From: Escherichia coli 042
GTDB lineage: Bacteria; Pseudomonadota; Gammaproteobacteria; Enterobacterales; Enterobacteriaceae
DNA length: 64,000 bases
Strand: one strand, 5' to 3'
Assembly: GCF_000027125.1 (NCBI RefSeq)
Contig: NC_017627.1
Of this stretch, positions 12,458 to 53,890 are shown piece after piece. Position numbers and translations under genes: made by a program. Below the pieces are notes generated by a model. It saw only the letters and a list, made by a program, of their open reading frames with translations. It ran no database searches and had not been told where the DNA came from. How positions within the stretch are numbered: position 1 is the stretch's first letter; each line of letters opens with the position of its first letter.

Positions 12458-15280
12458 TTATTGCTTGTGCTTATCCTGATACTCCTTTGCTCTTTTCATC
12501 AGTTCCTGTGGACTGTCAGCACCAGGCATTCTTTCCTGACCCGATTTTTCTTCATTATATTTATTATTCTGAGATAATGCCTCTGTTTTATGGTGATTTT
12601 GTAGTTCAGAATACTGTCTTCCTACAATATTTTCTTCGCCACGTATGCTGCTCTGAGTATCTCCGATATTGCCACGATATTCTGTGACCATATTATCAAC
12701 CTGATGTTTTACATCATTACGGATATTACTGTCCTGCGTTCTTTGCTCAATAATGGCCTGATGTCCCTGATGGTCAGCAATAATATTCTGGCTGCCACCG
12801 CCCGAAGGTACGCTCTCCATTCCTTTACCGATGTCCCCACGGGATTCACGCCAGGCATTATCAACACCAGGCTGTACCTGTTCCTGCACAAAAGACCACG
12901 CCATAGCCCGACGGCGTTCTGCAATCTCCGGCGAACTGGTATTTGTCAGAATAGCTTCTGCATCCTGCGGTGCGCGTTTCATCACATACTGTGCAAACTG
13001 TTGCGACAGGTCTTCACTCATCTGCCCGCTCATGCTTTCAGTACGGGAGGCCATTTCCGCATATTCATGGCTGCGGGTCATATTCGTCGTGTACTGGTCG
13101 TAACTCTGTTTCGCTGAGTTCAGGGCTGCAGACAACTGATCCACACGGGAATCGGCATTATTGTCCGTATGGCTGCCGGATTCACTGACCTTGCGACTGG
13201 TAAAGTAATCGCTGGCCTCTTTAAAGTCTTGTGTAGCCCTGGCATCGATATCATGGCGAGCATCATGGCTGGCCCGTGAACCACTGCTGGCCTGATGCGC
13301 ATCCTCATCACTCCAGTCAATACTTGCCCGACCACCACCTCTAACACCTGCGCCACCACCAACACCAAGAATTTTAGGTTTAACCCCCCATTCAGCATGA
13401 ACATCGCCATACATCCCCGCAGAACCTCTCGTACTTCTTGATGCCAGTTCTCTTGTTGCCTGCTCATTACTGATATTATGCGCCTTCGCATAGCTTTCCA
13501 CTGCACTGCGCATACGGCTGGCCATCATGGAGTCCTGTGCACTCATGGTGCTGTCAGCGCCACCGGTGACAGAATCACTGCTCCCCCGGTTAGAACCAAA
13601 CTGACTGAGCGAGTTCCAGGCACTGGCAATACTGCTGCTGAAACCATGCAGGGCACTTTCTGCTCTGTTCGACGCCTCCCGGGCCATTTCCTGTTGTGCC
13701 GCTGCAATCTGACGCGTTGCATTGATACCAACCGGTAACCGGGACATCGCTCCGCTTGCATCCATCACCATATTACCGTCACGGGTCTGTGTGGCAGTTG
13801 CGCCACTGCCGGTCTGGTACATCATCTGACCAAACGACGTGGTGCTGTTGGTGCTCCAGCTGAAGCCGTTCACGTTTTCCGTCTGCATGTTGCCGTAGGA
13901 GTAATTACCGTCAACCACACTGCCTGCTGCACTGGCCGTCGGACTGATAGAGGAAGAGGCGAAGTGGCTGTACACGCTGGAAAAACCTGCGCCAAGGCCT
14001 TTTACCATCATCCATGACAACGGGGGGATCATGGCTGAAAGATACCCGGCAGTAGAGGCCAGGTCAGAGTATTTCAGCTGTATCTGAGAGAGTTCAGACA
14101 GCACGACCGGCGCACCATTCATCTTCGCATAGAATGTCATGGCACTGTTCAGAATGGCATACAACAACGGCCAGGTCTGCAGCCACATCAGGGCAAACAC
14201 ATAGCCTTTCAGGACGGACAGTGTCAGTTTGTTGAAGACAGCTGCCAGTACCAGAAGCGGGAAAATACCAATGGCAATTCCCGTCAGGATAGTCTGTACC
14301 ATTGGCAGGTTTCGCATTGTCACATGACCGATAGAGACATGCGCCAGACGTTGCTTCTCCATCGATGACGTGGTGGCCAGATTCACCAGGCTGGCGGTGT
14401 CACCATTACGGGCGGCATTACTGGTGATACCCTCTTTCAGGGCATTCATGGTGACGTTCTGGCGCATAATCTGGCTGGCAGACTGACTGGAGCCGTAGAA
14501 ATAACTGTAACTGTCACTGACCAGTTGTCTGAATAACAGGTCCGGGTCCGGTCTGCCGCCAAATATCTGCTGCACATAATAATGCCAGGTCTTGCCTCCC
14601 GTCTTTGTATCGAGATTCAGCCTGTCTTTCAGCGTGACCGACGCATCCTTACAGGTTATGAAATTATTATTGTTGTCATAAACGCCCCGTAGCGGGCTGG
14701 GTCGGGAAAAAATCAGCGTGTAGGGGTCAGCGGAGGCCATCAGATCTTCCAGCGTGTATTTATGATTCAGGTAAATATCACCCAGCACGCAGTTCTGGAC
14801 GTAGTCCTGGAACAGATTGATGATTTCCGGATTCCGGGACAGGAAATCGGTGCTTTTCACAATCAGATTCGCCCCGAACAGCATGCCTGTCTTGCTGTAG
14901 GTGACGCTGTCCGGTTGGGTGAATATCATCTCGTAGCTGACCACCATCGCATGCCCGATACGTGTCGTCAGTGAAAGTGGCATCGCCAGACCGACCGGCA
15001 CATTATCCACCCGATGGACTTTGACCAGGTCACTGTTATCAATAATCTGCACCGATGTGCGGACATTAACCAGCAGGCTGATAAGCACAAACACCGCCAC
15101 CCAGCCCAGTAAATCCATCACGTTGTGCCGCTGTACCCACATAAAAGCCACAGCAACAACAGACAGGGTGAGCGCAATTTTTTCAATGGAATCCCAGGTC
15201 CGGGTACTCATAAATGCTGCAATGGCATTCAGGTTGTTACGCAACCACTCACCACCGGCAATCACATAAACTTCATTCAC
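12458..15280 (-). CDS. traG: TraG mating pair stabilisation / entry exclusion protein
   Basis: 940 aa, N-terminal polytopic region and large periplasmic C-terminal domain; F TraG length. Confidence 0.95.
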   Translation of the reverse strand: MNEVYVIAGGEWLRNNLNAIAAFMSTRTWDSIEKIALTLSVVAVAFMWVQRHNVMDLLGWVAVFVLISLLVNVRTSVQIIDNSDLVKVHRVDNVPVGLAMPLSLTTRIGHAMVVSYEMIFTQPDSVTYSKTGMLFGANLIVKSTDFLSRNPEIINLFQDYVQNCVLGDIYLNHKYTLEDLMASADPYTLIFSRPSPLRGVYDNNNNFITCKDASVTLKDRLNLDTKTGGKTWHYYVQQIFGGRPDPDLLFRQLVSDSYSYFYGSSQSASQIMRQNVTMNALKEGITSNAARNGDTASLVNLATTSSMEKQRLAHVSIGHVTMRNLPMVQTILTGIAIGIFPLLVLAAVFNKLTLSVLKGYVFALMWLQTWPLLYAILNSAMTFYAKMNGAPVVLSELSQIQLKYSDLASTAGYLSAMIPPLSWMMVKGLGAGFSSVYSHFASSSISPTASAAGSVVDGNYSYGNMQTENVNGFSWSTNSTTSFGQMMYQTGSGATATQTRDGNMVMDASGAMSRLPVGINATRQIAAAQQEMAREASNRAESALHGFSSSIASAWNSLSQFGSNRGSSDSVTGGADSTMSAQDSMMASRMRSAVESYAKAHNISNEQATRELASRSTRGSAGMYGDVHAEWGVKPKILGVGGGAGVRGGGRASIDWSDEDAHQASSGSRASHDARHDIDARATQDFKEASDYFTSRKVSESGSHTDNNADSRVDQLSAALNSAKQSYDQYTTNMTRSHEYAEMASRTESMSGQMSEDLSQQFAQYVMKRAPQDAEAILTNTSSPEIAERRRAMAWSFVQEQVQPGVDNAWRESRGDIGKGMESVPSGGGSQNIIADHQGHQAIIEQRTQDSNIRNDVKHQVDNMVTEYRGNIGDTQSSIRGEENIVGRQYSELQNHHKTEALSQNNKYNEEKSGQERMPGADSPQELMKRAKEYQDKHKQ

Positions 15281-49914: not shown

Positions 49915-50249
49915 AACAGCACTCCTTCTCTTACAGAGGGCACCGGGAGGGCACCCCTGTGGTGCCCGTTCCCCGCTGCCTGTGGGCTGTTCACCGCGTC
50001 CGGTAACGGGTCAGGCCGACCGTGGAATACCGCAGCCGTCGTCTTTTTGACGGCAAGGCTATGCCGCGAAAGCGGCTTGAAGGGCGTTCATCAGAAAAGG
50101 GCTCCCGGCTGGCGTACACTGTCACCAACGCCAGCCGGGAGCGGTAAAAGCGCCCGTCCCGTGCCCGGCCGGACGCGGGACACTGACCACAGGCAGCGTT
50201 CCTGCCGCGCCGCGTCAGCCGGCGCAGTAAAAAGAGGAGCCCGGCGACA

Positions 50250-50431
50250 TCTTTTGTCACCCGCCAAACAAAACCCAAAAACAACCCACACCCAACCCAA
50301 TAAAACACCAAAACAAGACAAACAATCATTGATTGATGGTTAAAATGGGGTAAACTTGACAAATAAACCCACTTAAAACCCAAAACATACCCAAATACAC
50401 ACCAAAAAAAACACCATAAGGAGTTTTATAA
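50250..50431 (+). promoter_or_regulatory. parC: parC-like centromere/promoter region upstream of parM
   Basis: A/C-rich repeated motifs (aaaccc, acccaa, aaaaca) upstream of the parM RBS. Confidence 0.55.
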
Positions 50432-51394
50432 ATGTTGGTATTCATTGATGACGGTTCAACAAACATCAAACTACAGTGGCAGGAAAGCGACGGAACAATT
50501 AAACAGCACATTAGCCCGAACAGCTTCAAACGCGAGTGGGCAGTCTCTTTTGGTGATAAAAAGGTCTTTAACTACACACTGAACGGCGAACAGTATTCAT
50601 TTGATCCAATCAGCCCGGATGCTGTAGTCACAACCAATATCGCATGGCAATACAGCGACGTTAATGTCGTTGCGGTGCATCACGCCTTACTGACCAGTGG
50701 TCTGCCGGTAAGCGAAGTGGATATTGTTTGCACACTTCCTCTGACAGAGTATTACGACAGGAATAACCAACCCAATACGGAAAATATTGAGCGTAAGAAA
50801 GCAAACTTCCGGAAAAAAATTATATTAAATGGTGGGGATACATTCACAATAAAAGATGTAAAAGTCATGCCTGAATCTATACCAGCAGGTTATGAAGCTC
50901 TACAAGAACTGGATGAGTTAGATTCTTTATTAATTATAGACCTCGGGGGCACCACATTAGATATTTCTCAGGTAATGGGGAAATTATCAGGGATCAGTAA
51001 AATATACGGAGACTCATCTCTTGGTGTATCTCTGGTCACATCTGCAGTAAAAGATGCACTTTCTCTTGCGAGAACAAAAGGAAGTAGCTATCTTGCTGAC
51101 GATATAATTATTCACAGAAAAGACAACAACTATCTGAAGCAACGAATTAATGATGAGAACAAAATATCAATAGTCACCGAAGCAATGAATGAAGCACTTC
51201 GTAAACTTGAGCAACGTGTATTAAATACGCTCAATGAATTTTCTGGTTATACGCATGTTATGGTTATAGGCGGTGGCGCAGAATTAATATGCGATGCAGT
51301 AAAAAAACACACACAGATTCGTGATGAACGTTTTTTCAAAACCAATAACTCTCAATATGATTTAGTTAACGGTATGTATCTCATAGGTAATTAA
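50432..51394 (+). CDS. parM: ParM (StbA) actin-like partition ATPase
   Basis: 320 aa [32 protein letters not shown]..., essentially R1 ParM. Confidence 0.97.
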
Positions 51395-51396
51395 TA

Positions 51397-51747
51397 ATGG
51401 ACAAGCGCAGAACCATTGCCTTCAAACTAAATCCAGATGTAAATCAAACAGATAAAATTGTTTGTGATACACTGGACAGTATCCCGCAAGGGGAACGCAG
51501 CCGCCTTAACCGGGCCGCACTGACGGCAGGTCTGGCCTTATACAGACAAGATCCCAGGGCCCCTTTCCTTTTATGTGAACTGCTGACGAAAGAAACCACA
51601 TTTTCAGATATCGTGAATATATTGAGATCGCTATTTCCAAAAGAGATGGCCGATTTTAATTCTTCAATAGTCACTCAATCCTCTTCACAACAAGAGCAAA
51701 AAAGTAATGAAGAGACCAAAAAAAATGCGATGAAGCTAATAAATTAA
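51397..51747 (+). CDS. parR: ParR (StbB) centromere-binding protein
   Basis: 116 aa MDKRRTIAFKLNPDVNQTDKIV... Confidence 0.95.
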   Translation: MDKRRTIAFKLNPDVNQTDKIVCDTLDSIPQGERSRLNRAALTAGLALYRQDPRAPFLLCELLTKETTFSDIVNILRSLFPKEMADFNSSIVTQSSSQQEQKSNEETKKNAMKLIN

Positions 51748-51762
51748 TTCAATTATTATTGA

Positions 51763-51799
51763 GTTCCCTTTATCCACTATCAGGCTGGATAAAGGGAAC
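51763..51799. terminator. Hairpin terminator after parR
   Basis: gttccctttatcca ctatcaggc tggataaagggaac, perfect 14-bp stem. Confidence 0.5.
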
Positions 51800-51985
51800 T
51801 TAATCAAGTTATTTCATTAGCAATGATCACATAAAATAAATACAGTGTCGTTATTATGAAATTATTTCACGGCACTTATAAAAAACAGTACCAATAATCA
51901 AACCTGGTGAGTTCGCAATGTCTGGCAATAACGTTTTTGATGGGTTGTTTTCCAGCCCGGAGCGCGATATTGCCACCAGTCACAG

Positions 51986-52246
51986 AAACACCGAGAACAC
52001 CAGATTTCAGCGGTCGCTGAATTTGAACGAGATCTTTTACTTGAACGAACTTATTCAGGGATAGCAAGAGCACGGGATGCAGGAAAACGTTTTGGTCGCC
52101 CACCGGTATTAAATGAAGAACAAAAACAGAAGGTGCTCGAACGCATTAAGTCTGGGGCAAGTATAAGTGCTATTGCCAGGGAATTCCGAACCACACGGCA
52201 AACAATTCTGAGAGTTAGAGCGAAACAGCAAACTGTTACTGTATAG
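51986..52246 (+). pseudogene. Serine recombinase (resolvase) C-terminal fragment
   Basis: Translates to ...[59 protein letters not shown]... with no start codon and no N-terminal catalytic domain. Confidence 0.6.
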
Positions 52247-52262
52247 AAAATAGTCTTAGCGT

Positions 52263-52448
52263 GGGATTCCGTTTTCCAAGCGGACCCCAAGGAAGACTAC
52301 ATCGCGTTCATGCCGAAACCGAATGTAAGAACGGCATTGCATAATCTTGCAGTGGCGATCGAACATTACAATGAAAACCATCCGCACAGTGCGTTGGGTT
52401 ATCGCTCTCCGCGAGAATATCGACGTCAGTGGGTAACGTTAACTTAAG
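52263..52448 (+). pseudogene. IS3-family-like transposase C-terminal fragment
   Basis: Translates to ...[27 protein letters not shown], typical integrase-core C-terminus; no upstream ORF. Confidence 0.5.
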
Positions 52449-52595
52449 ATACAACCCCTGTCTGGAAATAAGGGGGCAAGAACACATTGACACTGTAATA
52501 TGGCATTGTATAAAACTCCGCCCCAATAATGAGTTTCATTTGCATTACTCCCATTTGCTGGTCATCCACTCGCCTGTTTACAAGGATAGCGTTTA

Positions 52596-53594
52596 ATGAA
52601 GAAGGTCCTTTGCGCGTTAGGCTTGATGTTCACCGCCGTCAGTTCCGCGCTGGCAACAACCTACCCCCTGACGATTGAAAACTGCGGCTATCAGGAGACC
52701 TTCACCCGGCCGCCGGAGCGCGTGGTCGCGCTGGGGCAAAATACGGTCGAAATTCTGCTGCTGCTCGGGCTGCAAAAGCAGGTGGTCGCCAGCGCCTTCT
52801 GGCCGACCAGCGTTTTACCGCAGCTGGCTGAGCAAAACGCGAAGATTAAAACCTTGACGGTGGAAATTCCGAGCCTGGAATCGGTGCTGGCGCAAAATCC
52901 TGATTTCGTTCCCGCCCAGTTGCCGCTGCTGCTGGGGCCGGAAAGCAAAGTCGCCAGGCGTGAAGATCTCGCCACCGTCGGCGTGAACAGCTACGTCTCA
53001 CCGGGGATGTGCGCCACCAAAAAGGCCACCGGCGATATGTACGGCAGCCGGAAAAAGCTGTGGGATATGACCTGGCTGTATCAGGAAATTAGCGATTTTT
53101 CCCGCATTTTCAACGTCGAAGATCGTGGTCAGGCGCTGATTGCCGATTTCAAAAAACGTGAAGCCGACCTGCGCCAGGAGTTTGGTAAAAGCAAAAAGGA
53201 TCTCTCCTTCGTCTTCTGGTTCTCCAGCGCCTCACCTTCGGCCGATGCCTATGTCGGCGGCAAAAACAGCGCCTCCGGATTTATCGCCAGCGTGCTGGGC
53301 GGACATAATGCGATTACCTCCGAAACCGAGTGGCCCACGGTGAGCTGGGAGAGCATTATTGCCGCCAACCCGGATGTGATCGTGGTCGCCAGCCTAGATC
53401 GTAACCGCTGGGCGCTGGATAAGGCCGAGGAAAAGATCAAATTCCTCAAAAGCGATCCCGCCGTCAGCCAGCTGGAGGCGGTGAAAAAAGGCCATATCGT
53501 GGTCATGGACGGTCAGGCGATGAATCCGACCATTCGCACGCTTTACGGCGCGGAGCAGGTGGGCGAGCAGCTGAGAAAAATGGGGCTGAACTGA
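52596..53594 (+). CDS. ABC transporter periplasmic substrate-binding protein (iron/siderophore-type)
   Basis: 332 aa with signal peptide; GC-rich; followed by FecCD-like permease remnant. Confidence 0.8.
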   Translation: MKKVLCALGLMFTAVSSALATTYPLTIENCGYQETFTRPPERVVALGQNTVEILLLLGLQKQVVASAFWPTSVLPQLAEQNAKIKTLTVEIPSLESVLAQNPDFVPAQLPLLLGPESKVARREDLATVGVNSYVSPGMCATKKATGDMYGSRKKLWDMTWLYQEISDFSRIFNVEDRGQALIADFKKREADLRQEFGKSKKDLSFVFWFSSASPSADAYVGGKNSASGFIASVLGGHNAITSETEWPTVSWESIIAANPDVIVVASLDRNRWALDKAEEKIKFLKSDPAVSQLEAVKKGHIVVMDGQAMNPTIRTLYGAEQVGEQLRKMGLN

Positions 53595-53890
53595 TGAGCG
53601 TCGCCGCGATTGAGACGCGCCGCAGCATACTGCTCACCGGCTGGTGTGTACTGGCAGCGATCGTGCTGGCGCTGGTGATCGCTGTGGGCGTCAGCGTTGG
53701 CGAGCTGGCCATCCCGCTGCAGAATGTCTTTTATGCTATCAGCAACAGAACCGGCTTAACCGCTGAGCCGCTCAACCGTATCTATGAGAGCGTTATCTGG
53801 GATTTCCGCCTCAGCCGCGCGCTGGTCGCCGCCTGCTGCGGCGCCGGCCTCGCTATCTGCGGTGTTGTGCTGCAAAGCTTGCCGGCATGA
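53594..53890 (+). pseudogene. FecCD-family ABC permease, N-terminal fragment only
   Basis: 98-aa ORF with permease-like N-terminus that switches frame at about 53887 into an ATPase C-terminus. Confidence 0.6.

Follow-up and report, generated by a model that had tools for sequence, protein, structure and literature searches.

Resolvase and IS3-family transposase remnants as a probable three-layer scar at the edge of the eitABCD cargo in an IncFII plasmid segment of Escherichia coli 042

Two short coding fragments of mobile elements lie side by side between the partition genes and the GC-rich eitABCD genes of this plasmid segment, and the question is where they came from and whether they mark the place at which cargo and backbone were joined. 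We analysed the whole 64,000-nucleotide stretch of contig NC_017627.1 (hereafter the window), which is a segment of an R100-like IncFII plasmid with ParM at 50432-51394 and ParR at 51397-51747, according to profile search. An earlier note, made from the sequence alone, had described adjacent C-terminal fragments of a resolvase and of an IS3-family transposase at 51986-52448, and had read them as a recombination scar. Both fragments are real, are encoded on the + strand and lie far beyond chance by Pfam, NCBIfam and DNA identity, and these two unrelated remnants do form a recombination scar at the edge of the eitABCD cargo. We consider it very probable that the scar is non-functional and has three layers, left by successive mobile-element events that are all older than this plasmid.

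The left fragment is the 3' remnant of a Tn3-family resolvase gene, tnpR (52003-52246, + strand), which begins at codon 117 of 196; 80 codons (117-196) and the TAG stop are kept and the 116 codons on the 5' side are absent. The translation of 52003-52246 matched Pfam HTH_7 (PF02796) over profile positions 1-44 of 45 (E 3.5e-11; 43.5 bits, cutoff 23.8), and matched the Resolvase catalytic-domain profile (PF00239) only over its last 28 positions (117-144 of 145, E 2.7e-4). The remnant has kept the HTH domain and has lost the catalytic serine domain and the res site; the full catalytic domain with its serine nucleophile is present in the intact relative. At the DNA level, 52003-52250 was 98-99.6% identical to the 3' part of intact 196-aa genes annotated as 'recombinase family protein'.

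In plasmid pCFSAN004181P (NZ_CP012499), this parent gene is divergent from a gene for a 994-aa transposase (DDE_Tnp_Tn3, E 3.9e-146). The intact transposon is 3815 bp long, with tnpA and tnpR between perfect 38-bp inverted repeats GGGGTCCGCTTGGAAAACGGAAAATATCCCACGCTAAG (GGGG...ACGCTAAG), and near-full-length copies of it were present in 186 plasmid records. Target duplications of 5 bp (TTTTG and TGGAA) flank two copies, and 2 of the 4 intact copies examined (L005 and L019) have none. Given the transposase match, the 38-bp repeats and the target duplications, the parent is a genuine Tn3-family transposon, active and cryptic, whose tnpR is the gene in question. A literature search for a name of the 3815-bp transposon returned none. 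One copy (NZ_CP051657, L018) lies inside orfA of a different IS3-family element with a clean TGGAA duplication, which points to at least two landings of the transposon in IS3-family elements.

The last 290 bp of the transposon (in NZ_CP012499, NZ_CP099345, NZ_CP051657 and others) are 97.2% identical to 52003-52288. Relative to the intact element, the window lacks tnpA, res, 116 of the 196 tnpR codons and the other repeat; the comparison with the intact element found no tnpA, res or second repeat anywhere in the 64 kb. The remnant does include a tnpR-proximal terminal inverted repeat (52255-52288, - strand), which the earlier note had missed and which separates the two coding fragments. It starts 8 bases after the tnpR stop, matches the tnpA end of the intact element in inverted orientation and keeps 34 of the 38 bp, reading inward as GGGGTCCGCTTGGAAAACGGAA[AATA]TCCCACGCTAAG with a 4-bp internal deletion by alignment. 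This deletion is common to pKF3-70-like plasmids, pKF3-70 being identical here, and the full 38-bp repeat is present in p1517k (L004), L005 and L017-L019.

The right fragment belongs to an insertion sequence. It corresponds to the right end of an ISEc48-like element (IS3 family, IS2 group; 52289-52484, + strand), the last 196 of 1336 bp, and comprises codons 242-293 of orfB (52289-52444; 52 codons kept) with the stop at 52445-52447 and the 42-bp right terminal repeat (about 52443-52484), which ends in ...AACA with the tip ...GGGGGCAAGAACA. The translation matched Pfam rve_3 at positions 27-67 of 67 (E 6.1e-9) and the NCBIfam 'IS2 transposase TnpB' at positions 241-288 of 301 (E 1e-18). The reference for an intact copy was NZ_CP122920, in which an 'ISEc48 family' element interrupts a porin gene; 191 of the 196 bases (97%) were identical to its right end, and the alignment stops at the last base of the IS. 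Four independent IS copies likewise agree through 52484 and diverge right after it. The intact ISEc48 and the remnant are alike in the transposase C-terminus and the right terminal repeat; the remnant lacks orfA, the programmed -1 frameshift site, the DDE residues and the left end. In particular, the OrfB remnant begins at residue 242, seven residues past the catalytic E235, and all three DDE residues are lost. A search for further ISEc48 sequence in the window gave a single match (52289-52454) and none elsewhere. An IS3-family element of Klebsiella (L009, 82% identity) was considered as the parent and was displaced by ISEc48 at 97%; the Shigella pINV and pO157-like copies, considered as intact parents, are both themselves partial.

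That the two fragments might be one intact gene read in another frame has practically no chance of being right. They do share a reading frame, since 52004, 52289 and the stop codons all fall at position modulo 3 = 2, but the resolvase stop (52244-52246) intervenes and the two come from unrelated families, each matching the 3' end of its own intact gene at about 97-99% identity. Nor does any frame carry one intact gene across the region: the longest ORFs in the other frames reach 72-79 aa, lie on the minus strand and match no Pfam family. Comparison with plasmids bearing intact elements, which had been proposed as a check, yielded the intact 196-aa tnpR, the 3815-bp transposon and the intact ISEc48. 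The boundaries of the scar needed adjustment. Resolvase homology begins at 52003 and not at 51986, bases 51986-51993 being backbone and 51994-52002 filler, and on the right ISEc48 sequence runs past the stop codon (52445-52447) for another 37 bp to 52484.

The seam between the two remnants is exact. Transposon sequence ends precisely at the tip of the repeat (52288), and ISEc48 begins at 52289; all the IS-family DNA matches start at this base, the first after the repeat tip. A 96-nt query spanning the seam between repeat and ISEc48 found it in 151 plasmid records, including ColV-type virulence plasmids whose resolvase gene is intact and in which IncFII par surroundings are missing. The junction with the backbone, described below, was found in 75 records, and from these counts the inner seam is the older and the more widespread of the two. 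Since a seam at the exact repeat tip is expected of transposition and rare for random deletion, the Tn3-family element probably inserted into ISEc48 orfB, with AAGGA as a putative target duplication.

The counterpart of such an insertion would be a reciprocal junction, in which left ISEc48 sequence (...GAAAACGAT[G/A]AAGGA) is followed by the tnpA-side repeat (GGGGTCCGCTTGGAAAACGG). A synthetic 120-nt query, composed of left ISEc48 ending in ...AAGGA and the tnpA-side repeat, did not find it among 72,556 plasmids (PLSDB). The matches with 68% coverage were a related Tn3-family repeat beside the C-terminus of an IS5-like transposase, a chance similarity, and the single match at 93% (L016) was a different rearrangement of the transposon and ISEc48. 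Neither the reciprocal junction nor an AAGGA duplication in those plasmids thus speaks for a simple insertion, and the seam could instead have come from a deletion or rearrangement ending at the transposon tip, such as a transposase-mediated adjacent deletion. The two intact copies without duplications (L005 and L019), which mean that end rearrangements occur, and the other transposon/ISEc48 junction in L016 are also in its favour. We nevertheless regard this origin as unlikely, because transposition is expected to leave a break precisely at the GGGG tip and two other copies have clean 5-bp duplications, one of them inside an IS3-family element. The transposon end makes the seam in either case, and the anatomy is unchanged. 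Insertion of the transposon into ISEc48 is the reading that we carry forward.

We then focused on the backbone side. The earlier note had placed the fragments 'immediately after' a parMRC terminator, and this does not hold: a hairpin lies at 51758-51804 (+ strand), 10 bp after the parR stop, and is followed by about 200 bp of backbone that include 25 codons of a truncated gene. The hairpin (inverted repeat I1) has an MFE of -29.7 kcal/mol and a z of -6.5, no shuffle folding equally well; it is terminator-like, without a clean U-tract, and was uncalled by a simple terminator pattern. The stretch 51748-51879 is conserved in many IncF plasmids and the hairpin is part of this conserved IncFII backbone. 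The simple promoter and terminator pattern scan of 51600-52700 gave nothing beyond chance and no promoter-like site on the + strand, and an Rfam scan (evalue mode) of 50000-53500 gave no match.

Homology to eit-free IncFII plasmids (L007 and L006) stops at 51993, inside a 136-aa gene. The window keeps its 5' remnant (51918-51993, + strand), the first 25 codons; 22 of these agree with the intact homologue (L007 4161-4571). That homologue scored 94 bits (cutoff 50) against NCBIfam NF052490 AcrIF11, for which the 25 codons of the window are too short to be scored. AcrIF11 is a family of anti-CRISPR ADP-ribosyltransferases, and the gene is intact just downstream of parMR in eit-free IncFII plasmids; it follows that the pKF3-70-like lineage lost its AcrIF11-family gene. 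After the remnant come 9 bp of filler, AGAACACCA (51994-52002), present in neither parent and resembling the preceding backbone GAAACACCG. Homology to ColV-type plasmids (p1517k, L004; L014) begins exactly at 52003, in the middle of tnpR.

The true junction of backbone and cargo is thus at 52002/52003. The remnants had been taken to mark the join itself; they do lie at the cargo edge, but the junction is the 5' edge of the resolvase remnant and both remnants are cargo. A 96-nt query over the junction of backbone and tnpR matched 75 plasmid records, and all other records matched only one half, either the left 39 nt (51955-51993) or the right 48 nt. The outer junction arose in a single event and has been passed on unchanged within the pKF3-70-like lineage with its R100 backbone. 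At 52002/52003 we found no IS, repeat, res site or microhomology, only the 9 bp of filler, and an IS-mediated or site-specific origin was rejected since the junction has no such signature. We infer a join by illegitimate recombination, for which the lack of these signatures is the one basis.

A chimeric ORF (51856-52064) crosses the junction, with the 25 AcrIF11-like codons followed by out-of-frame tnpR. In some records it is annotated as a 69-aa hypothetical protein (WP_012881112.1), for which Pfam gave no family. In the window, an A-run that is 1 bp shorter (about 51880) removes the upstream start of this ORF and leaves 48 aa.

Region 51750-52600 was 99.4-99.5% identical to 74 plasmid records, among them pKF3-70 and a set of IncFII plasmids of ~70 kb, and had a full-length match in 34 complete RefSeq E. 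coli genomes. The pKF3-70-like plasmids (NC_013542 pKF3-70, NZ_CP032205, NZ_CP135724 pMTY1223_IncFII) have the same locus at this identity, and they share both the junction at 52002/52003 and the loss of 4 bp from the repeat. Between parR and eitA they carry pseudogenes annotated as 'recombinase family protein' or 'helix-turn-helix domain-containing protein' and as 'integrase core domain-containing protein', and in dozens of these near-identical plasmids PGAP calls both remnants 'incomplete; missing N-terminus' pseudogenes. What sets the window apart is a few SNPs, two indels of 1 bp and an eitB-eitC deletion of 999 bp that is absent from those plasmids; unlike them, it has no ISEcp1-blaCTX-M-14 insertion after eitD. 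The published descriptions of pKF3-70 and pChi7122-2 cover eitABCD together with its promoter and its location downstream of par, and leave the resolvase and IS3 remnants unmentioned; a literature search for the scar or for ISEc48 found no paper that mentions either remnant.

The ColV-type module (NZ_MW800638 p1517k_F64:A-:B27; K. pneumoniae p4710) was 98.8-99.3% identical over 52003-55930. It shares with the window the seam between repeat and ISEc48, the ISEc48 remnant, the eit operon and the downstream immunity gene. In contrast to the window, it has an intact tnpR (196 aa), the full 38-bp repeat and a complete immunity gene with its HNH neighbour, and its upstream context is an IS110 and replicon-adjacent sequence instead of parMR. 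The ColV copies examined were already without tnpA and part of res, and no record has the complete intermediate.

At the right end of the ColV-derived block (55715-55930, - strand), the breakpoint at 55930/55931 falls in a bacteriocin immunity gene; homology to ColV goes no further than 55930, equivalent to position 12932 of L004, within the immunity CDS (12717-12974). From 52003 to 55930 this homology is unbroken except for the window-specific eitB-eitC deletion. Since it runs through both remnants and eit from 52003 on, the remnants belong to the cargo, and both arrived with it as one block. This bears on the reading that sequence alone suggests for adjacent remnants between low-GC par and high-GC eit, namely that both truncations arose in one event when eit joined the backbone and that the seam between the remnants is the boundary. 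We hold such a single event to be very unlikely, as the seam between repeat and ISEc48 is present in ColV-type plasmids with an intact resolvase and without IncFII par, its 151 records outnumber the 75 of the backbone junction, and backbone homology ends at 51993 while cargo homology starts at 52003. The rise in GC content coincides with the beginning of eitA (about 52596) and lies ~600 bp rightward of the actual junction, the remnants themselves having 44-47% GC.

Beyond the block, 55931-57117 has no match in the ColV plasmid or in the eit-free IncFII plasmid examined (L011) and holds a RelE/ParE toxin-antitoxin pair (56349-56901), and a 200-bp stretch at 57130-57346 is similar to what precedes tnpR directly in the ColV plasmid. 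NZ_CP041358 (L020) and six similar large-plasmid records have the eit/immunity/RelE block with homology that starts at 52334, inside ISEc48; this is a further, independent truncation of the scar. Near its right edge the window contains a perfect 1299-bp inverted repeat (58841-60139 and 62702-64000), comprising copB/repA-leader sequence and the 5' part of an IS256-like transposase gene, with two tandem 1239-bp IS3-family copies (98.4% identical) between the arms (60140-62617). The repeat reaches the end of the window; an IS could have duplicated the replicon region in inverted orientation, or the assembly could contain a fold-back artefact.

The cargo genes are all on the + strand and constitute a putative iron-uptake module, eitABCD, whose product families are a periplasmic binding protein, FecCD and ABC ATPase fragments and an MFS transporter. 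eitA is located at 52596-53594 and eitD ends at 55637. Between them, a 5' remnant of eitB is fused to a 3' remnant of eitC at 53882/53883, where 999 bp are missing; compared with pKF3-70, the ColV-type plasmids and pRHBSTW-00320_2, the deletion covers two-thirds of eitB, on its 3' side, and one third of eitC, on its 5' side. The deletion junction was found in 0 of 253 eit-bearing plasmid records with a junction-spanning query, and no overlap or microhomology was present at it. Either the deletion is private, and would be expected to inactivate the transporter, or it is an artefact of the assembly or the sequence.

The eit promoter region (52487-52515, + strand) has its -35 box TTGACA at 52487-52492, followed by TGGCATTGTATAAA; the box starts 2 bp past the ISEc48 tip at 52484. 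In pKF3-70 the eit promoter comprises a Fur box, the -35 TTGACA and the -10 TGGCATTAT (PMC2797631). The promoter spacer of the window lacks 1 bp (CTGT-AATATGG) that pKF3-70 and pRHBSTW-00320_2 have.

The data establish what the remnants are, where the breakpoints lie, that the inner seam came first and that the intact transposon is active elsewhere; from this we infer the order and mechanism of each event, and a direction from a ColV-like plasmid to IncFII, as follows. The right end of an ISEc48-like IS would have been sitting 2 bp upstream of the eitABCD -35 box when the 3.8-kb cryptic Tn3-family transposon (tnpA, res and tnpR with 38-bp repeats) inserted between codons 241 and 242 of the ISEc48 transposase gene, its tnpR end towards eit. 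This insertion would have created the exact 52288/52289 seam, and the state with intact tnpR would survive in ColV-type plasmids. Later, a block that starts at tnpR codon 117, includes the IS remnant and eitABCD and ends in the immunity gene would have been joined to an R100-like IncFII backbone by illegitimate recombination, destroying the AcrIF11-family gene downstream of parMR. The IncFII form is likely the derived one and the direction likely from a ColV-like plasmid to IncFII, because tnpR, the repeat and the immunity gene are truncated or damaged there (truncated, damaged and truncated, respectively) and the ColV form is intact in all three; this follows the logic of intact versus truncated features and not a phylogeny.

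Neither remnant is predicted to act and no function is indicated. The transposon is left with one damaged repeat and the ISEc48 fragment with one end; because the remnants have no catalytic residues and no complete set of ends, the scar should be inert and eit stranded. It could be argued that the remnants persist by function, whether through read-through into eitA from the promoter of the truncated backbone gene, a role of the ISEc48 end in the eit promoter or a short HTH peptide from the resolvase tail: parMR, the backbone fragment, both remnants and eitABCD are all on the + strand, the IS tip is 2 bp from the -35 box, and conservation was 100% over two 96-nt junction queries among the full-length matches listed. 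We find this most unlikely, though. Recent clonal descent explains the conservation, the whole region being 99.4-99.5% identical; the pKF3-70 eit promoter and Fur box lie outside the IS (PMC2797631); the sole in-frame start in the resolvase tail is a GTG that would give 37 aa; the searches reported above found no Rfam match and, by simple scan, no promoter-like site on the + strand; and other plasmids have eit with a shorter IS remnant (homology from 52334). An inert scar remains the preferred reading.

The same arrangement leaves room for one far-fetched proposal, to which we give very little credence: the gain of eit would have cost the globally successful pKF3-70-like IncFII lineage the AcrIF11-family gene beside parMR, and the orphaned promoter of this gene would now read into eitABCD and give a Fur-independent burst of expression early after conjugative entry.

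The kind of feature is familiar and its pseudogene annotation is already public, and the scar has little weight on its own, as routine debris of plasmid evolution. It is also a case in which a jump in composition sits about 600 bp from the true recombination junction. With no complete IS or transposon around it, the eit module would be stranded and would move only with larger segments. Finally, the breakpoints at 51993, 52002/52003, 52288/52289, 52484 and 55930/55931 are lineage markers, and they tie the eit module of the pKF3-70-like resistance plasmids to ColV-type virulence plasmids.
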